From the IMG/VR virus record IMGVR_UViG_2706794684_000018: DNA of 14,801 nt; one strand, given 5' to 3'. The notes under the pieces were generated by a model. That model was not told the DNA's origin. It saw nothing but the letters and a program-made list of their open reading frames with translations, and ran no database searches. The position numbers were made by a program, and so were the translations under genes. This DNA is from a virus. Its lineage: Duplodnaviria; Heunggongvirae; Uroviricota; Caudoviricetes. Below, in pieces: positions 1 to 12,016 of the stretch. Position 1 is the stretch's first letter; each line of letters opens with the position of its first letter.

Positions 1-339
1 ATGACACACAAGAGAATTCCTAAAGATTGGGTAATCAAACGCTCAACTCCGTTCTTCACAAAAGAGAACGTACCTTCAGCGTTATTAACACATCATAATA
101 CAGCAGCAGGTGTTTTTGGGCAGTTGTGCGTAATGGAAGGCACTGTAACATATTATGGTTTTACTGATGAGAATGCTACTGAACCGGAGATAAAAGTAGT
201 CATTAATGCTGGCGCTTTTGCAACAAGCCCACCACAATACTGGCACCGTGTTGAACTAAGCGATGATGCTCAGTTTAATATTAACTTTTGGGTCGCTCCA
301 GACTTTTCGGGCGAAAAAGTCTATAGCACCAAAAAATAG
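1..339 (+). CDS. DUF1971-family protein (YeaR / TehB N-terminal-like); may be 5' partial at the window edge
   Basis: 112-codon ORF starting at window position 1 and ending with TAA. The protein resembles my recollection of E. coli YeaR (DUF1971) but is clearly not identical. An intrinsic-terminator-like hairpin follows at 369..406. Family assignment is from memory, not a search. Confidence 0.55.
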   Translation: MTHKRIPKDWVIKRSTPFFTKENVPSALLTHHNTAAGVFGQLCVMEGTVTYYGFTDENATEPEIKVVINAGAFATSPPQYWHRVELSDDAQFNINFWVAPDFSGEKVYSTKK

Positions 340-368
340 ATGATCATATTAAAAATGCTTTAACAGTC

Positions 369-406
369 AGACCCGGCAGGGCTATCCCCGACGGGTCTCA
401 TTTTTG
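369..406 (+). terminator. Putative rho-independent terminator downstream of the DUF1971 gene
   Basis: Inverted repeat AGACCCG (369..375) / CGGGTCT (392..398) with inner GGG/CCC pairing, followed by CATTTTTGT (399..407). Lies 30 nt after the stop codon of the 1..339 ORF. Confidence 0.5.
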
Positions 407-959
407 TAAATATATTGGTTCTACATTGACAGGAGACTTCAACCATAAGAAGTAATCTGAATACTTGAGCAATAAATTTACTTAAGATTAATGAGCGCAC
501 CTTGCCGGACAAAGATAAACCAAGGTAACACCTTTTTTCTAGCCAGTATGTAATCAATCAGAAAGCCGCTCCATAAGAACAACAGCAAGACAATAAATTG
601 CCATTACAGCCGCAATAGCCAGCGCACATTTGAGAACCAGCACGACAACCCCCTGTATTAGACGCACACCAGTCCTGATAAATATGAGGCTGTCTCGTCA
701 GTGATTCAATACAACTATTGGGTATAGTTTCTGTGATTTTATTCTGTAGAAATGGAACACAACAACCAGTCACCACCAGCACTTCCTTAAATGCTCTAAG
801 TCAGAAACAAGCCAACATTTTAGTCCGCTTTGAGCGATCTGCAGACATTGCTAGCAGCCTTCTGTGTGAATTCTCAGGGAGCAGGTCGGCATAGCATCAC
901 GTTGAGGCTCTTACCCTACTTGTTCACACCAACCCTAACTCCACAGACTGATTCATAAA

Positions 960-1961
960 TTAGTAATCTGCGTGTTTCGCACTTTTCAGAAATGCTTTCA
1001 TATTTTCATTAGGTCGCTCAATTTCGAAGTTACTTCCATATAACTCTTGTAATTTTGGCCATAACTTACTTAATAACCCTCTCCTGCGATAAAATGGATG
1101 TATCCAAACGGTAGATAGGTACGGAGAATTTGCATTTGAATTGTTTATTGTGACCAGCCCAACTAAACATTGTCGATAACCACTATTATCCATTGATTGT
1201 ATTTCTTCGACGAATGGATACGCGATTACATCAGTCCAACCATGATCGGTTGTATCCCATTGCATTCCGTCATGACATTCCTTCGACTGATAGCGGCGTA
1301 AAGCTACACACGCGAGCTTTTGCCAATCTGGAGAATTAATTGTGATCTCTTCATCGTATGACGCGCCTATTGGAGCGGGTATTGGTCTGATTAATCCAGC
1401 ATGGCATTCATCATAGAACTTCATGTTTCCCTCAGAAACGTTGTGTACGTTGGGTTGCTCCATGTGTGCGCCATTCAAAAATAGCTCTGATAGTAGTGTA
1501 TCTACACTGTAATCTTTATTGATTATTGTCGGCTTAGAGTTTTTCTTATTAAGGCCGCGAGTAACGATTTTTTGATCAATGTTAACAACATGGAATAATC
1601 CGTCGGGGAGGCTAGCGAACCACGATGGGGCATCGGACCAGAATAGCATGCCTTTTGTACTTCTTAAGAGTTTAATTAAGTTAATACAAGCTTCTTCACT
1701 AGTCTTGCCGTTGATGCGAAGTATGTTAGGACTAAAGTAATATTCATCCATATCAGGGAATGCAGCTTCGCAAAACTCCTGTACATAATTTAGCACCTGG
1801 ATTCTACAGAGATCATCATAGCTGGTAATAACTAAGGGGGTATCTTCATTACTATTATGATTATCAATAATGCAATCTATAGCGAGACTTACTGCTTTGC
1901 GTATCACTTCAGTTGAATCTAACGACTCTAAAAATTTTGTCTTTCGTGTGCGAATATCCAT
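960..1961 (-). CDS. Hypothetical protein (333 aa), cargo gene B; C-terminal GNAT-like acetyltransferase motif
   Basis: Uninterrupted 333-codon ORF; ATG at 1961..1959, 15 nt downstream of the stop of the upstream gene (operon-like). Residues VWIHPFYRRRGLLSKLW (1059..1109) resemble the GNAT beta4-alpha3 acetyl-CoA-binding segment, and NENMKAFL further downstream resembles the following GNAT motif. Sampled line 1021..1080 has 18 G+C of 60. No family assignment possible without a search. Confidence 0.6.
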   Translation of the reverse strand: MDIRTRKTKFLESLDSTEVIRKAVSLAIDCIIDNHNSNEDTPLVITSYDDLCRIQVLNYVQEFCEAAFPDMDEYYFSPNILRINGKTSEEACINLIKLLRSTKGMLFWSDAPSWFASLPDGLFHVVNIDQKIVTRGLNKKNSKPTIINKDYSVDTLLSELFLNGAHMEQPNVHNVSEGNMKFYDECHAGLIRPIPAPIGASYDEEITINSPDWQKLACVALRRYQSKECHDGMQWDTTDHGWTDVIAYPFVEEIQSMDNSGYRQCLVGLVTINNSNANSPYLSTVWIHPFYRRRGLLSKLWPKLQELYGSNFEIERPNENMKAFLKSAKHADY

Positions 1962-1976
1962 GTATGACCTGCGCTA

Positions 1977-2999
1977 TTAAAATTCATGAATGAACGGTTT
2001 GTCATCTGGTTGCAAAATGGTGGTTTTATTCGTTGCTACATTTAAACTGTTGTAGAGCATAATTGCCAGGTTCGATGCATTTTCAATCAGCGTTTCAAGA
2101 TCCTGGTCTGTAATCACTACGAGGTTCCCTTCTTTATCCTTTCCACCACGATGCACTAAGTGATTTCGATTGAGGGTTGCCAATTCAATAGCTTCTATCG
2201 GACAGTCTTTTTGTACTTTTATATCGAATGTAGCTTCATAGCGGTCGATTACCTTTTTAGTGCTATGCCAGCTTGCACTGATCAAGTGTTCCTTGATTGA
2301 CCTGATTAGCTCTCCCCTAATTTTCTCGATGGGTTCACCCTTGAAAGGCAACGCAGCAATATCTTTGCTTACTTTAAATTCAGTCTTACCTTTTTCTATA
2401 CAATTGGCTATGTAGACATCATCTTTCTCTATAGAATTAATGAATAGCTCAACATAAAGCGTTTCCAAAGCTGTAATAACATTCGTGTAGAGCAAACTAA
2501 GCAAGTGGTTTTTTTGCTGTTGTTCAGTTTTATCTTTTGCAAGTTTTTTTATTTTATCGATATTATCAATGAATTTTAAATACGGATTACCGGAAGACGT
2601 TACAGCGTCGTAGATATCATCATCGTACCAATCATCTATATTATTTGAGTTTCCAGACCAGTCAAAACATTGTGTTTGTAATTCATCTACTAATTCCTCA
2701 ATATACTCAGATTTAACATATTGACCGAAGATGGATTGTAGTTCTTCGCTCGCATCATACGGCCCGCCATATATGTAAGCATAGCCACCTTCTCTACTTT
2801 CATACGGACAAGCATTTGCCGGATCTTCAAAGTTTTCAAAGAACCAGTTTTTCATTACTTCGAGTTGATCTTTTTTGCTTATGTATTTTAAAGATTTTAG
2901 TGGAACTTTCTTTCCATTAACCTCGAAAACAATTTTCACGATGTAACGCTCCCTTGTATCAATTGCGCAACTATTATACCACAGCGAAATACAGGGCAT
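1977..2999 (-). CDS. Hypothetical protein (340 aa), cargo gene A; C-terminal HEPN-like R-N-x-x-x-H motif
   Basis: ORF in the supplied track extends to 3068, but the ATG at 2999..2997 is preceded by GGAGG with a 6-nt spacer, so I take 2999 as the start. Motif RNHLVH is encoded at 2168..2151 (cga aat cac tta gtg cat). Very AT-rich: line 2521..2580 has 11 G+C of 60, against 33 of 60 in recE line 9781..9840. Confidence 0.6.
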   Translation of the reverse strand: MPCISLWYNSCAIDTRERYIVKIVFEVNGKKVPLKSLKYISKKDQLEVMKNWFFENFEDPANACPYESREGGYAYIYGGPYDASEELQSIFGQYVKSEYIEELVDELQTQCFDWSGNSNNIDDWYDDDIYDAVTSSGNPYLKFIDNIDKIKKLAKDKTEQQQKNHLLSLLYTNVITALETLYVELFINSIEKDDVYIANCIEKGKTEFKVSKDIAALPFKGEPIEKIRGELIRSIKEHLISASWHSTKKVIDRYEATFDIKVQKDCPIEAIELATLNRNHLVHRGGKDKEGNLVVITDQDLETLIENASNLAIMLYNSLNVATNKTTILQPDDKPFIHEF

Positions 3000-3137
3000 A
3001 ACCTGCCTCCTTAAACTAACATACCATGAGCCAGCAATGTCCGCTATTGGCACAAAGCGGACAACCACGCTAGCTCTCCCCTGTGCCAGAAAAATGTCAA
3101 TTTACATATGAACTAATGCTCTTTGATCTAGTAACGT

Positions 3138-3554
3138 CTATAAATACCGAAGATTTCCTTGATAAAATGCCAGTACACGTTTCATAACTTCACTCTTCCG
3201 GCACTCGCGACAGATTATGTTCTGACGCCTGTCATAGCGGCGTATTTCTCCGTCTGGTAATGACCAGATAAGGTCAGGATCAACCACAACCGTTTTTTTC
3301 ACCTTTGCCCTGGATAGTTTTTTGCGGGCGTTTTTCCAATCCTTACGAGCCTGTTCAGACGGGAATAACCCATAGCCAGAGTTGTATACATCGCCACTGG
3401 CAACCAACTCTCTGGCAAGAATGCTCATCAGATATCTTGTCGCACCTGTCTTGGCCTCCAGTTGCCTTAACGTCTCGCGCCCACTCTGGCGTACCAACTC
3501 AACAACCTGCTCCTTAATTTTTTCACGCTCTTCCTGTGTAAAAACTTTTGCCAT
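3138..3554 (-). CDS. Hypothetical phage protein (138 aa), possible winged-helix N-terminus and a CxxC pair near the C-terminus
   Basis: ORF in the track runs 3138..3569; the internal ATG at 3554..3552 is preceded by GGAGG (MAKVFTQEE...), so 3554 is the preferred start. Lies 15 nt downstream of the preceding gene in the same leftward operon. No family recognised. Confidence 0.5.
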   Translation of the reverse strand: MAKVFTQEEREKIKEQVVELVRQSGRETLRQLEAKTGATRYLMSILARELVASGDVYNSGYGLFPSEQARKDWKNARKKLSRAKVKKTVVVDPDLIWSLPDGEIRRYDRRQNIICRECRKSEVMKRVLAFYQGNLRYL

Positions 3555-3569
3555 AAGCGCCTCCGGCAA

Positions 3570-4166
3570 TCACTTTTCCGACACAATACGACTGGAGGAA
3601 TCGACAATCTGTCGGACAATATCCCGGTGCTTGTTCAGCTCCCGCAGCGCGGCGCAGACTCGCTCCCACTTCTGGACATGATTTTTCGCCCGACGCAGTT
3701 CGCGGTTTGCCATATGCAGCGATGGTAAAACTAGGTCATCCGCTTGCGTTTCAGTAAACGATGGCAGCGACTGCACAATGTCCGCCACAGTTTCTGTTTT
3801 AATATCTTCCTGTGTTGCCGCTTCCTGTACTGGTAACGCAACACCGGCTGGCTGAGGAAAGGCTTTACCATCAGTTTCCGCTACCGATGCAGCTTTCGGC
3901 TCTGCTGGTAAATTATCGCCCGGCATGCAGTAACGAAATTTACTGTTCTGGTTTACGCGAATCAGGCGTCCTTTGCTGATTGCCATTGCCAGCGTTGAAG
4001 CAACTTTGCGGGATGTTGTACCGAACAGCGTAGCCAGTTCATCCGCCGTTTGTGGTCCGCGTTGTTCAATCGTCGCGGTTAAATCGCACTCTGAGATTTT
4101 CACTACAGTTGCCGTGGTGGTTTCTTCCGGCAGTTCTGCCTGCATTGGCTGTTCCTGCTGAACGTT
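3570..4166 (-). CDS. Hypothetical phage protein in the ydaW position (possibly DUF1627-like, winged-helix); 5' end hidden in the N-run
   Basis: The frame is open from the N-run (4167..4267) to the stop at 3572..3570, about 199 visible codons. The track fuses it with ydaV into a 463-aa ORF, which I consider an artefact. The first visible in-frame ATG is at 4145..4143, but the true start may lie inside the gap. Family guess is from memory of what follows DnaC-like genes in lambdoid prophages. Confidence 0.45.
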
Positions 4167-4267
4167 NNNNNNNNNNNNNNNNNNNNNNNNNNNNNNNNNN
4201 NNNNNNNNNNNNNNNNNNNNNNNNNNNNNNNNNNNNNNNNNNNNNNNNNNNNNNNNNNNNNNNNNNN
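4167..4267. other. Run of 101 N (assembly gap or masked sequence)
   Basis: Seen directly in the sequence. Hides the 3' end of ydaV and the 5' end of the downstream gene. Confidence 0.99.
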
Positions 4268-4961
4268 AATTCACCCATCGCCCGCCGTTCATGGTCATGC
4301 GATCCATAATCCGCTCGCCGAGCAATGTTTTCATGGCCTCATAGTTCAGGTTTGTCAGCATCCCCACGCTGCGCATCGACGCTGTCCGGCGATCAACAAT
4401 CTGGTGCAGCACCACCTGCTCGTTTTTCGTCTCGCGCTGAATGCCAATTTCATCAAGAACCAGCAGATCCACTTCGCATAGTTCCCGCAAAAATTTTTCG
4501 CCTGACTGCCCATCGTCATAGCTGGCGTGCAGGGCACTCATAACATCAGCCACGGTAACCACAATCACTGTCTGACCGTCTTTCAGCAGGCGATTCCCGA
4601 TAGCTGCCGCTAAGTGATTCTTCCCGGTACCAGGTTTTCCGCTGAACGCAAAATTTGTACACCCGGTCATCAGTTCATCAGCGATGGATTTCGCCTGACT
4701 CAACGCGTATCGCTGCGCTTCGTTCTGCACCTGGTAATTCGAAAACGAGCATTTGCGGTGCAATGGCTGGATGCCAGAGCGATTCAGAATTTTTTCCACC
4801 CGCAACTGACGATTCTGACGGTTGATCTCCTCACAACGTTTCTGGCCTTCGGAAAGTTGCCACTCGCGCCACTCCGCTACCGTCTTGAATGGCGCGGTTA
4901 CATGTGACGGGGCCAGTCTGCGGATACGTTCAAGAACGTCGCCTGTCGCAATATTTTTCAT
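4268..4961 (-). CDS. ydaV: DnaC-like replication/helicase-loader protein YdaV (visible portion; 3' end lies within the N-run)
   Basis: Starts MKNIATGDVLERIRRL...; contains the Walker A segment FSGKPGTGKNHLAAAIG and a DEIG Walker B-like motif, as in E. coli DnaC. Start ATG at 4961..4959 with a GGGGG Shine-Dalgarno upstream. If the protein is about 248 aa as I recall for K-12 YdaV, the stop would fall near 4215, inside the gap. Confidence 0.8.
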
Positions 4962-4967
4962 GGTCAG

Positions 4968-5786
4968 TTACCCCCTGAAGCCTGGCGGGATCGCACTATC
5001 CGGTAACGAGACGGTGTTAACCTGTCGGAGTAACGTCTCAGGTCGAACACCTTTCGGCGCGAACAAGCCCTGGTATTCATTGGCGATGCTGTGTCGAATC
5101 ACCTGCTCAGGTGAAAAACCCTGCTGGCGGAATTTTTCCAGCTCCCGTATCGCCCCGTTAGCGCCCTGCTCCGTTCGAATCGGTTTTCGCAATGCCTGGC
5201 GAAATTCAACCCACTCACGCCAAAGCGAGACAGAAATCCAGTTCGGCAAAGCAATATCCAGAGGGTCAAACTTTTTGACACCTCGATTCCCCCGGGGGGG
5301 ATTTAGGGGGGGATCTGTTTTTAGATCTTTATCTGTATCTTTATTAGTTGCCTTTGTGTTGACATCATGTTCAAACACCACTTCAACATCTGTTTGAACA
5401 CCTGTTAAATTTCTCTCTTGTTTTGTTTGAACATCTNNNNNNNNNNNNNNNNNNNNNNNNNNNNNNNNNNNNNNNNNNNNNNNNNNNNNNNNNNNNNNNN
5501 NNNNNNNNNNNNNNNNNNNNNNNNNNNNNNNNNNNNNNNNNNNNNNNNNNNNNNNNNNNNNNNNNNNNNNNNNNNNNNNNNNNNNNNNNNNNNNNNNNNN
5601 NNNNNNNNNNNNNNNNNNNNNNNNNNNNNNNNNNNNNNNNNNNNNNNNNNNNNNNNNNNNNNNNNNNNNNNNNNNNNNNNNNNNNNNNNTCAGCAACAAA
5701 TACGCACCATGCTCCTCTGCTGACAAATGCATGGTGTCAGCCAGGTAATCAGCTATGTACAGTTGCATGTATGGTAATGCGGCCAT
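4968..5786 (-). CDS. ydaU: DUF1376-family phage replication-region protein YdaU (interrupted by the N-run 5437..5689)
   Basis: N-terminus [32 protein letters not shown] is characteristic of DUF1376 and matches my recollection of YdaU. The preferred start ATG at 5786..5784 gives this N-terminus; the track's longer ORF to 5837 has no Shine-Dalgarno. The gene is immediately upstream of ydaV. Confidence 0.7.
5437..5689. other. Run of 253 N (assembly gap or masked sequence) inside ydaU
   Basis: Seen directly in the sequence. Confidence 0.99.
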
Positions 5787-7457: not shown

Positions 7458-7613
7458 ATGCAAAAAATCGACCTCGGCAACAACGAATCCCTGGTGTGCG
7501 GCGTGTTCCCCAACCAGGATGGAACGTTCACTGCCATGACGTATACCAAAAGCAAAACATTTAAAACCGAAACTGGTGCGCGCCGATGGTTGGAGAAGCA
7601 CACAGTAAGCTAA
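7458..7613 (+). CDS. ydaF: Small Rac prophage protein YdaF (51 aa)
   Basis: ATG at 7458; encodes MQKIDLGNNESLVCGVFPNQDGTFTAMTYTKSKTFKTETGARRWLEKHTVS and ends with TAA at 7611..7613, overlapping the convergent sieB 3' end by 4 nt. Below the track's 60-aa cutoff. Weak Shine-Dalgarno; the call rests on position and length. Confidence 0.5.
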   Translation: MQKIDLGNNESLVCGVFPNQDGTFTAMTYTKSKTFKTETGARRWLEKHTVS

Positions 7614-8098
7614 CGATTAAAACGTCTACTCCTGCTGTTCCAGAATAACTTCATAAAATGGGAGTATTTTTCGGTGACGAGATAATAAGAACAGTTTGCG
7701 CTATCACTCTGATGTTGAATGATGCCCTTCCGTTCTAATTTTTTCATAACCGGGTTACGGCAAGGAGAAGTGATAATAAGATTTCCTGTTTTAAGGAAAT
7801 CTTTAAATACAGCGATTTCTTTCTCAGATAAACGAAGCAATACTCGTTGCTCTGGTAGTAATGAATAATGCTTTTGAATATGTGCTCGCAATCTTGAGAA
7901 GGAAATGGCGACCACGAAAGAAAAGGCAAAAACGATAATCTGAAAGAGCCAAGGTATTTCAGTATAAGCATTGAATGCGACAGTAAACTCTTTCGGTATC
8001 AGCCAGAGAGTGAGACCAAAAATGATAATCGTATACATAAGTATTTCGAGTGGCTCGTTAGCAAAAAGTTTCAACAATGGAGTAAATACATCCAACAT
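7610..8098 (-). CDS. sieB: Superinfection exclusion protein B (membrane protein)
   Basis: Track ORF is 203 aa; the internal ATG at 8098..8096 gives a 162-aa protein MLDVFTPLLKLFANEPLEILMYTIIIFGLTLWLIPKEF... with hydrophobic segments, matching my recollection of SieB. AT-rich gene. Confidence 0.85.
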   Translation of the reverse strand: MLDVFTPLLKLFANEPLEILMYTIIIFGLTLWLIPKEFTVAFNAYTEIPWLFQIIVFAFSFVVAISFSRLRAHIQKHYSLLPEQRVLLRLSEKEIAVFKDFLKTGNLIITSPCRNPVMKKLERKGIIQHQSDSANCSYYLVTEKYSHFMKLFWNSRSRRFNR

Positions 8099-9382: not shown

Positions 9383-12016
9383 ATGAGCACAAAACCACTC
9401 TTCCTGTTACGGAAAGCGAAAAAATCATCCGGTGAACCTGACGTCGTCCTGTGGGCAAGCAACGATTTTGAATCGACCTGTGCCACTCTGGACTACCTGA
9501 TCGTTAAGTCAGGTAAAAAACTGAGCAGCTATTTTAAAGCTGTTGCCACGAATTTTCCTGTCGTTAATGACCTGCCCGCTGAAGGTGAGATCGATTTTAC
9601 CTGGAGTGAACGCTATCAACTCAGCAAAGACTCCATGACATGGGAACTAAAACCGGGAGCAGCACCAGACAACGCTCACTATCAAGGCAATACCAACGTC
9701 AACGGCGAAGACATGACTGAGATTGAGGAGAATATGCTACTCCCAATTTCTGGCCAGGAACTGCCCATTCGTTGGCTTGCTCAACACGGCAGCGAAAAAC
9801 CGGTAACGCACGTTTCACGCGACGGACTCCAGGCATTACACATTGCTCGGGCTGAAGAACTACCGGCTGTTACTGCCCTGGCTGTTTCCCACAAAACCAG
9901 CCTGCTCGACCCGCTGGAAATTCGCGAACTCCACAAACTGGTTCGTGACACTGACAAAGTTTTCCCTAATCCTGGTAATTCAAACCTGGGACTGATAACT
10001 GCTTTTTTCGAAGCATACCTGAACGCTGACTACACCGATCGAGGACTGCTGACAAAAGAGTGGATGAAGGGTAATCGTGTTTCACACATCACTCGCACGG
10101 CTTCCGGTGCTAATGCTGGCGGCGGAAACCTCACCGATCGCGGCGAAGGTTTCGTACACGATCTGACGTCACTGGCGCGGGACGTAGCCACTGGCGTACT
10201 GGCCCGTTCAATGGATCTGGACATCTATAACCTTCATCCGGCACACGCTAAACGCATTGAGGAAATTATCGCTGAAAATAAACCGCCCTTTTCTGTTTTC
10301 CGCGACAAATTCATCACCATGCCTGGCGGGCTGGATTATTCCCGCGCCATCGTGGTTGCGTCCGTAAAAGAAGCACCAATTGGGATCGAGGTCATCCCCG
10401 CGCACGTCACTGAATATCTGAACAAAGTACTGACTGAAACCGATCATGCCAACCCTGATCCGGAAATCGTGGATATTGCCTGCGGTCGCTCCTCTGCCCC
10501 GATGCCGCAGCGAGTAACAGAAGAAGGAAAACAGGATGATGAAGAAAAACCGCAACCATCTGGAACAACGGCAGTTGAACAGGGAGAGGCTGAAACAATG
10601 GAACCGGACGCAACTGAACATCATCAGGACACGCAGCCGCTGGATGCTCAGTCACAGGTAAATTCTGTTGATGCGAAATATCAGGAACTGCGGGCAGAAC
10701 TCCATGAAGCCCGGAAAAACATTCCATCAAAAAATCCTGTCGATGCCGATAAATTGCTTGCTGCATCACGTGGTGAATTTGTTGACGGAATTAGCGACCC
10801 GAACGATCCGAAATGGGTAAAGGGGATCCAGACTCGCGATTGTGTGTACCAGAACCAGCCAGAAACGGAAAAAACCAGCCCGGATATGAATCAACCTGAG
10901 CCAGTAGTGCAACAGGAACCGGAAATAGCCTGCAATGCCTGCGGCCAGACTGGCGGGGATAACTGCCCTGACTGTGGTGCGGTGATGGGCGACGCAACAT
11001 ACCAGGAAACATTCGATGAAGAGAGTCAGGTTGAAGCTAAGGAAAATGATCCGGAGGAAATGGAAGGCGCTGAACATCCGCACAATGAGAATGCTGGCAG
11101 CGATCCGCATCGCGATTGCAGTGATGAAACTGGCGAAGTCGCAGATCCCGTAATCNNNNNNNNNNNNNNNNNNNNNNNNNNNNNNNNNNNNNNNNNNNNN
11201 NNNNNNNNNNNNNNNNNNNNNNNNNNNNNNNNNNNNNNNNNNNNNNNNNNNNNNNNNNNNNNNNNNNNNNNNNNNNNNNNNNNNNNNNNNNNNNNNNNNN
11301 NNNNNNNNNNNNNNNNNNNNNNNNNNNNNNNNNNNNNNNNNNNNNNNNNNNNNNNNNNNNNNNNNNNNNNNNNNNNNNNNNNNNNNNNNNNNNNNNNNNN
11401 NNNNNNNNNNNNNNNNNNNNNNNNNNNNNNCCGCCGGACAAACTCCGGAAAAGAAGAAGAGAAAGCGTTTCTGAGGGAATGCGCAAGCACAGGAAAAACG
11501 GTTATCACTGCCGAAGAAGGCCGGAAAATTGAACTCATGTATCAGAGCGTTATGGCTTTGCCGCTGGGGCAATGGCTTGTTGAAAGCGCCGGACACGCTG
11601 AATCATCAATTTACTGGGAAGATCCTGAAACAGCAATTTTGTGTCGGTGCCGTCCGGACAAAATTATCCCTGAATTTCACTGGATCATGGACGTGAAAAC
11701 TACGGCGGATATTCAACGATTCAAAACCGCTTATTACGACTACCGCTATCACGTTCAGGATGCATTCTACAGTGACGGTTATGAAGCACAGTTTGGAGTG
11801 CAGCCAACTTTCGTTTTTCTGGTTGCCAGCACAACTATTGAATGCGGACGTTATCCGGTTGAAATTTTCATGATGGGCGAAGAAGCAAAACTGGCAGGTC
11901 AGCTGGAATATCACCGCAATCTGCGAACCCTGGCTGACTGCCTCAATACCGATGAATGGCCAGCTATTAAGACGTTATCACTGCCCCGCTGGGCTAAGGA
12001 ATATGCAAATGACTAA
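9383..12016 (+). CDS. recE: Exodeoxyribonuclease VIII RecE (interrupted by the N-run 11156..11430)
   Basis: 878-codon frame including the masked stretch. N-terminal and C-terminal sequence (…RWAKEYAND) match my recollection of RecE. The 3' end overlaps the recT start. Confidence 0.9.
11156..11430. other. Run of 275 N (assembly gap or masked sequence) inside recE
   Basis: Seen directly. The recE reading frame is preserved across it, suggesting length-preserving masking rather than an arbitrary gap. Confidence 0.99.

Follow-up and report, generated by a model that had tools for sequence, protein, structure and literature searches.

The window analysed here is the whole of a 14,801-nucleotide (nt) stretch of DNA from a Caudoviricetes virus (IMG/VR record IMGVR_UViG_2706794684_000018), which corresponds to a Rac-like lambdoid prophage of Escherichia coli. 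Near its left end lie two adjacent minus-strand genes, called A and B below, which an initial annotation made from the sequence had put forward as a candidate undescribed defence or toxin system pairing a HEPN-motif protein with a GNAT-motif protein. This cassette is very probably the anti-phage system DS-33, carried as a self-promoted moron in the post-replication slot of the prophage, with A as its effector and B as a separate accessory enzyme. The suspected defence function has indeed been demonstrated experimentally in the literature (PMC13092281). In the DefensePredictor study (Science 2026, PMC13092281), the operon WP_014639476.1 + WP_000354965.1 is listed as DS-33, under the working identifier 'GNAT', and is described as defensive and replicated (supplementary Tables S6-S8); the system is absent from the main text of the article and present in its supplementary tables. 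Gene A is identical to DS-33A at 320/320 residues and gene B to DS-33B at 332/333, and the tested copy (contig NZ_QOWT01000046.1, coordinates 7884/7900) has the same 15-nt spacing (PMC13092281). An identical A and a near-identical B had thus already been cloned, validated and named, and the term "undescribed" has to be given up. DS-33 is missing from PADLOC 2.0.0 because that database dates from 2023. The system being already known, what is left of novelty is gene B and its consensus allele, with proline at residue 289 (P289).

Protection conferred by DS-33 and its mutants

When cloned with its native promoter in MG1655, the DS-33 pair provides 100- to 100,000-fold protection against T7, T3, Bas67 and Bas26 (PMC13092281). 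The published values are log10 protections from two replicates (Table S7 of PMC13092281), measured with a clone that carries leucine at residue 289 of B (L289). For wild-type DS-33 they amount to 3.8/2.6 for T7, 3.3/2.4 for T3, 4.0/2.0 for Bas67, 5.0/5.9 for Bas26 and 0.8/0.1 for T5 (PMC13092281). In the delta-HEPN strain, protection against T7, T3 and Bas67 falls to about 0, with 0.5/0.3 for Bas26 and 0.5/0.1 for T5, and the R258A substitution in A gives a comparable picture, with 0.8/0.5 for T7, -0.3/0.3 for T3, 0.5/0 for Bas67, 0.7/0.4 for Bas26 and 0.4/0.3 for T5 (PMC13092281). The delta-GNAT strain, on the other hand, yields 4.8/4.3 for T7, 3.3/3.3 for T3, 4.0/3.3 for Bas67, 5.0/4.9 for Bas26 and 1.7/0.5 for T5. 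Defence is therefore abolished by deletion of the HEPN gene or by R258A, and not by deletion of the GNAT gene (PMC13092281).

The HEPN effector

Gene A (1977..2939 by the coordinates of the Prokaryotic Genome Annotation Pipeline (PGAP), 320 amino acids (aa), WP_014639476.1) would be the effector, in which an N-terminal HEPN_RES_NTD1 module precedes a HEPN domain of the RiboL-PSP type, the Rx4H motif (R258/H263) of the latter appearing to be needed for protection. All features of the cassette given here lie on the minus strand. The initial annotation had proposed HEPN from a motif, and the structure model of A (predicted local distance difference test, pLDDT, 88.8) now displays the four-helix up-down bundle of this fold; the predicted C-terminal HEPN domain covers aa ~140-308 (2016..2522). 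The sequence R-N-H-L-V-H is encoded at 2168..2151, as had been read, and where the last core helix begins, the expected Rx4-6H motif is matched by R258-x4-H263. This motif (R258-N-H-L-V-H263, 2151..2168), followed by R264, is marked both by its invariance and by the published R258A result, R258, H263 and R264 being invariant in the 58-sequence family alignment. Most invariant columns of that alignment fall in the N-terminal domain.

The family assignment is clearer from relatives than from A itself. PF18735 (RiboL-PSP-HEPN, cut-off 28.4 bits) gives no match for gene A at E<=1, whereas it scores 36.1 and 24.8 bits for the homologues P0101 and P0095, and many homologues bear a precomputed PF18735 match. 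HHblits links A to a RiboL-PSP-HEPN cluster annotated PD-T4-2_B, with a probability of 96.1 (PMC13092281). The N-terminal alpha+beta domain (aa 1 to ~115, 2595..2939) resembles HEPN_RES_NTD1, with a PF18870 match of 21.8 bits (E 2.5e-4, aa 46-112 of a 340-aa gene model) for a cut-off of 27.4 bits, which is exceeded by the relatives L054 (29.3 bits) and P0117 (28.7 bits).

HEPN_RES_NTD1-like domains are also fused to PIN_8 or other C-terminal domains in phage contigs. Because the domain is modularly fused to different nuclease domains, the N-terminal part of A is proposed to be a shared sensor or regulatory module, as far as such fusions can indicate. The arrangement varies, since the HEPN_RES_NTD1-like module forms the C-terminal end of PIN_8 nucleases from phage contigs (L069 3996-5282, and P0117), and also occupies a central position in proteins of 440-560 aa that contain no further recognised domain.

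The mechanism that we infer past the requirement for the HEPN active site is as follows. A would be kept inactive in uninfected cells, until a phage cue sensed through its N-terminal module activates the HEPN site. The active form would be a dimer, by analogy with HEPN RNases in general, and cleavage of cellular or phage RNA by A would then halt the infection.

Distribution and linkage of the pair

In a set of 5426 complete genomes of E. coli, 209 (about 4%) carry A and as many carry B. The two co-occur in 209/209, with at least 99% identity in 208/209, and are adjacent in every E. coli record inspected. The carriers include the extraintestinal and avian pathogenic (ExPEC/APEC) strains S88 and IHE3034, and the E. 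coli copies sit after a DUF977 gene in Rac-like and Qin-like prophages. DUF977 was considered as a third component and rejected, since it is absent upstream of the Serratia pair and the 138-aa upstream gene of Aeromonas is unrelated to it.

The moving unit corresponds to positions 886..3062, and comprises the promoter/leader, gene A, the spacer, gene B and ~74 nt of 3' flank. Exactly that stretch was found by blastn, at 97% nt identity, in Serratia grimesii (L008), in an unrelated island between RadC/CbeA genes and McrBC. A larger block (539-3564, blastn) is common to the Rac-like and Qin-like E. coli prophages. Since 886..3062 is shared across E. coli prophages and Serratia, and the pair also occurs in an Aeromonas defence island (A 87%, B 78% identity) adjoining Thoeris genes, the early proposal of a horizontally mobile cargo cassette is supported. 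In Aeromonas loci L104-L107, two small conserved genes, of 138 and 106 aa (4420-4836 and 7584-7904), neither with a Pfam match, flank the pair, which has a class-1-integron-like region or a TIR gene on one side and Thoeris ThsA/ThsB on the other.

The linkage of the two genes is tight within a certain range of divergence. Every intact pair among genome, viral and metagenome loci, down to 77.5% identity for A and 74% for B, has the 15-nt spacer seen at 1962..1976 in the window. Synonymous divergence (dS) is similar for both genes, which have diverged in step to dS ~0.7-1.1, in four or more genomic contexts. The ratios of nonsynonymous to synonymous divergence (dN/dS) across pairs, 0.12-0.18 for A and 0.20-0.43 for B, indicate purifying selection on both.

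Outside this range, the two families go separate ways. Homologues of A below 77% identity are never found with B, and homologues of B at or below 62% are never found with A. At 55-76% identity, A homologues are solo genes in defence hotspots, such as the P2 gpA-to-portal slot beside an ApeA-like gene, sites near integrases, or sites beside Mrr or DUF2326 genes. Two such minus-strand copies are L040 3338-4696, which adjoins an ApeA_NTD1 protein between gpA and the portal gene of a P2-like phage, and L042 6012-7715, next to a DUF2326 protein beside an integrase. The B family is found solo in integrative and conjugative elements (ICEs), genomic islands and phages, its members at or below 62% identity being solo in marine gammaproteobacteria and an ICE.

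Natural disruptions of the pair were also observed. Some solo B copies (~86% identity) are derived from pairs, as the leader of A is joined to the last 35-75 nt of A upstream of B (L009 5860-6000, L091, L126, L092). Two distinct junctions are seen, which implies at least two independent deletions of A with B kept. Conversely, A is intact and B broken in four independent loci (L098, L099, L125 and L134), through an IS1 insertion sequence (L098, strain SF-173), an insertion sequence replacing the 5' end of B, a stop codon (L125) or an interruption. Insertion sequences lie in or near the cassette in three separate E. coli strains, namely IS1 in L098 (SF-173), two copies of ISSen4 flanking A in L099 (MB56) and IS2 in L100 (O78 strain 3), which could reflect either a preference for AT-rich targets or selection against the cassette.

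The notion of a true two-component system is not supported by these data, given that deletion of the GNAT gene leaves the published defence intact, that both families are mostly solo, and that natural knock-outs of either gene exist. The published experiments and the comparative picture agree that A is self-sufficient and that B is not required.

A toxin-antitoxin pair, with A as a toxin and B as its obligatory antitoxin, or with B as a GNAT toxin of the TacT or AtaT kind neutralised by A, could be suggested by the tight two-gene operon, by the presence of both HEPN and GNAT domains among known toxins and by the location on mobile elements. This reading is nevertheless largely refuted and highly improbable, since both deletion strains are viable and the delta-GNAT one still defends (PMC13092281), and since natural genomes keep A with a broken B, or B with a deleted A. 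Moreover, there is no MNT, RHH or DUF1778 partner and no match to PADLOC or toxin-antitoxin families, and B, with 333 aa and an extra domain, differs from GNAT toxins of about 170 aa.

The GNAT-like protein and residue 289

Gene B (960..1961 in the open reading frame list and by PGAP, 333 aa, WP_000354966.1) would be co-transcribed with A and dispensable for the defence mediated by A; its product would have two domains and adopt a minimal form of the GNAT acyl-CoA transferase fold. Its structure model (pLDDT 90.2, predicted template modelling score, pTM, 0.81) bears out the suggestion of a GNAT alpha/beta fold at the C-terminus, after an unrecognised N-terminal region. The predicted GNAT-like domain spans aa ~186-333 (963..1406), and the fold is called minimal because the model stops after alpha4 (helix 319-327), without beta6-beta7. 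With Pfam Acetyltransf_1, gene B scores 19.9 bits, for a cut-off of 20.7, and the homologues P0164 and P0166 reach 27.0 and 26.2 bits. Residues ~180-333 also exist as stand-alone proteins of ~160 aa, some of them in phage genomes, as found by exhaustive profile search. The N-terminal domain (aa 1 to ~185, 1407..1961) is strongly conserved and gave no match in profile or fold searches, in which BFVD returned generic phage GNATs only.

The beta4-alpha3 'motif A' region, VWIHPFYRRRGLLSKLW, is encoded at 1109..1059 as had been noted, and alignment over 1059..1109 shows that it contains the invariant residues H288, P289 and R292. The motif A signature (Q/R-x-x-G-x-G/A) reads R292-R-R-G295-L-L in B; R292 never varies, G295 occurs in 33/41 members, and the B family has L, M or K in place of the final G/A. 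P289 (codon at 1095-1097) belongs to an H-P-F-x-R stretch at the beta4-alpha3 junction, in the acyl-CoA-binding region of GNATs. It is a proline in 41/41 full-length members, in 113/113 fetched copies of gene B and in 20/20 sequences of the C-terminal domain alignment A3 (19 stand-alone homologues and the domain from the window). The sole difference between the B of the window and the tested DS-33B (WP_000354965.1) is precisely P289 in the former and L289 in the clone. To judge from this conservation, the tested L289 protein may be impaired, so that the delta-GNAT strain would have been compared with an already defective gene. If so, the dispensability of the GNAT gene is not shown for the common P289 allele, a caveat on the published result that appears new.

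These observations feed a possible, if doubtful, alternative in which B is a functional partner missed by the published test. A wild-type (P289) B would then acylate A, its trigger or its RNA target, damping autoimmunity or shifting the phage range, somewhat as MNT antitoxins AMPylate HEPN toxins. The fixed spacer, the co-divergence of A and B and their matching dS, up to ~0.7-1.1 across different elements of E. coli, Serratia and Aeromonas, speak for it, together with the joint presence of both genes in every one of the 209 E. coli genomes carrying either, and with the placement of L289 in the tested allele at a position invariant in all three sets of sequences. In the delta-GNAT strain, moreover, protection rose by 1.0 and 1.7 log for T7, and in at least one replicate for Bas67, T3 and T5 (PMC13092281). 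A null L289 protein, however, predicts a delta-GNAT strain equal to the wild type and not above it, and the increase might equally be an expression artefact. The T7 values, somewhat higher than wild type in both replicates, argue against a fully dead L289 allele, and could come from residual damping by B or from altered expression. Against a partnership stand as well the activity of A alone in the published assay, the absence of B beside A homologues below 77% identity and of A beside B homologues at or below 62%, and the two deletions of A and four disruptions of B in which the other gene was kept. In its most specific form, the idea makes the consensus P289 B an active acyltransferase by which DS-33 is controlled or extended, for instance through acylation of the HEPN protein or of a target of the latter, RNA or protein, and treats the published dispensability as an artefact of the rare L289 allele; this form looks rather unlikely. 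If true, it would represent a new HEPN-plus-acyltransferase mode of defence regulation.

Another alternative, which we consider improbable, is that B benefits the phage, through counter-defence or host takeover, and simply shares the promoter of A, the cassette then combining one defence and one offence gene. Phage genomes do carry stand-alone homologues of its GNAT domain, which follow a DUF3987 replication gene in L103 and occupy a portal-protease moron slot in L102, and solo full-length B genes lie beside antirestriction and RadC genes (L009) or a DUF4400 gene (L010) in apparent mobile elements. In addition, the DefensePredictor log-odds are 9.45 for gene A and only 1.08, that is non-defensive, for gene B (PMC13092281). 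On the other side, B also occurs at chromosomal sites without phage context (L013, L018, L101), its target is not known, and it has no similarity to characterised anti-defence acetyltransferases.

The preferred reading remains that of a self-sufficient HEPN effector accompanied by B, an accessory enzyme that would be under selection of its own, would act on a substrate of its own and may also tune A. Several points weigh against it. The independence of B from A is not secure, given the fixed 15-nt spacer and the co-divergence to dS ~0.7-1.1 in at least four contexts. Protection by the delta-GNAT strain is equal or higher against T7, T3, T5 and Bas67 in both replicates (PMC13092281), and the tested B allele, with leucine at the invariant P289 position, may already have been inactive. 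As for A, the sensor role of its N-terminus is drawn from modular fusions only.

Gene starts and expression signals

Both open reading frames proposed initially, 960..1961 (333 aa) and the one ending at 1977, are present on the minus strand and are separated by the 15-nt gap announced (1962..1976). The start of gene A had been placed at an ATG (2997..2999, giving 340 aa), as in some phage annotations, with a strong GGAGG ribosome-binding site. This has to be revised: NCBI PGAP calls the start at GTG 2939 (320 aa), and homologues from other genera (Yersinia, Dickeya, Aeromonas, Proteus and others) begin with MK(I/V)VF at that position. The upstream alignment of 210 nt 5' of gene A from 15 loci shows a block CAAGGAG-N9-GTG (CAAGGAG..GTTGCATC-GTG) that is kept even in distant solo homologues, the start codon being ATG instead of GTG in L131 and L045. 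In the window, the ribosome-binding site AAGGGAG (2949..2955), defined by this block conserved in paired and solo homologues, stands 9 nt ahead of GTG 2939. The upstream ATG and its GGAGG are lost in L104, L125, L129, L130 and L132, and this non-conserved ATG, which also sits upstream of a conserved -10 element, is probably not a start.

That candidate extended -10 promoter element, TGgTATAAT (2973..2981), is recognised by its conservation in divergent paired loci, as TGgTA(t/c)AAT or TGaTAcAAT in L008, L118, L122, L125, L129, L130, L104, L132 and L110. A generic promoter and terminator scan gave nothing above shuffled sequences and no terminator, and the promoter is thus proposed because of conservation. 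Judging from these signals, the cassette is most likely transcribed from a promoter of its own, and gene A most likely yields a product of 320 aa. Such a promoter agrees with the fact that the published DS-33 clone defended from its 'predicted native promoter region' (PMC13092281).

Prophage setting

The window carries kilR, ydaE, racC, recE, recT, ralR, xis and int on the plus strand, and on the minus strand a cro-like ydaS, ydaT, ydaU, a DnaC-like gene and a DUF977 gene (3138..3569), then genes A and B. The pair, placed initially at the distal end of a leftward early operon, follows cro(ydaS)-ydaT-ydaU-dnaC-like-DUF977. The operon is, however, the cro-side, lambda-PR-like one, and is leftward by window coordinates only; as cargo of this operon, A and B additionally own a conserved promoter. 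The G+C content of the cassette (38.5%; 36.1% for gene A and 39.1% for gene B) is lower than that of the rest of the window (45.9%), of recE (50.1%) or of the adjacent replication genes (47-52%). This contrast, initially qualified as striking, is real, but modest and not unique, the sieB-kil accessory region being at 40.2%. Masked runs of N at 4167-4267, 5437-5689 and 11156-11430 interrupt the DnaC-like gene, ydaU and recE, and produce artificial G+C dips in the composition profile.

Downstream of the cassette, the ~620 bp 3' of gene B (340-960) contain no open reading frame above 74 aa and no Rfam match, the scan of positions 1-3700 at E<=0.1 having returned no RNA family. Positions 539-960 travel with the cassette, at 97% identity between Rac-like and Qin-like prophages. 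At the left edge, a convergent DUF1971/TehB-like gene lies on the plus strand (1-339), likewise in E. coli FORC_081.

Comparison with known systems

The cassette protects strongly against T7-like and other phages, which has already been published, so that the present finding adds no new system. The mechanistic interest lies in the trigger and the RNA target of the HEPN effector, and in the role of a highly conserved and widely mobile two-domain GNAT-like protein. As an invariant proline is mutated in the only tested allele of B, the question of this gene is cheaply testable.

No model of PADLOC-DB 2.0.0 (2023) matched the pair, the best score for A being E 0.01 (PglX, 13 bits), with none for B. 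NCBIfam and PHROGs provided no functional name, the latter assigning two 'unknown function' families, and the PDB sequences, profile-searched with both family alignments, gave nothing meaningful. TacT, AtaT and KacT (GNAT toxins of toxin-antitoxin systems) and the anti-CRISPR acetyltransferase AcrVA5 are small GNAT folds borne by mobile elements in conflict systems, as B is. B differs from them by its extra 185-aa domain, by the lack of an RHH/DUF1778 antitoxin neighbour and by the absence of beta6-beta7 from its model, and no sequence similarity between B and these proteins is detectable. With regard to the GNAT-RHH arrangement (TacT/AtaT type), the neighbours of B are A and a non-coding flank, and no toxin-antitoxin family was matched in Pfam, NCBIfam or PADLOC. 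In the HEPN-MNT toxin-antitoxin systems (type II/VII), the partner is an MNT protein; here it is the GNAT-fold protein B, which is dispensable in the published assay. No adjacent MNT antitoxin was found, as the only operon partner is gene B, with no NTP_transf match in the Pfam search.

On the HEPN side, the single-gene prophage defences HepS (Gifsy-1) and Tha (S. aureus prophages) have no sequence kinship with A past the HEPN core and possess a different N-terminal domain. With the RiboL-PSP-HEPN family (Anantharaman et al. 2013, PMC3710099; PF18735; including PD-T4-2_B), gene A has in common the four-helix core with Rx4H. Homologues of A exceed the Pfam cut-off of this family, whereas the A of the window stays below the Pfam and PADLOC thresholds, and A has a HEPN_RES_NTD1 N-terminus instead of a fusion to endoRNase L-PSP or a ParB partner in its operon. 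The closest relative is DS-33 itself, which shares with the window the gene order, the 15-nt spacer and an identical A, B having proline 289 in the window and leucine in the DS-33 clone.

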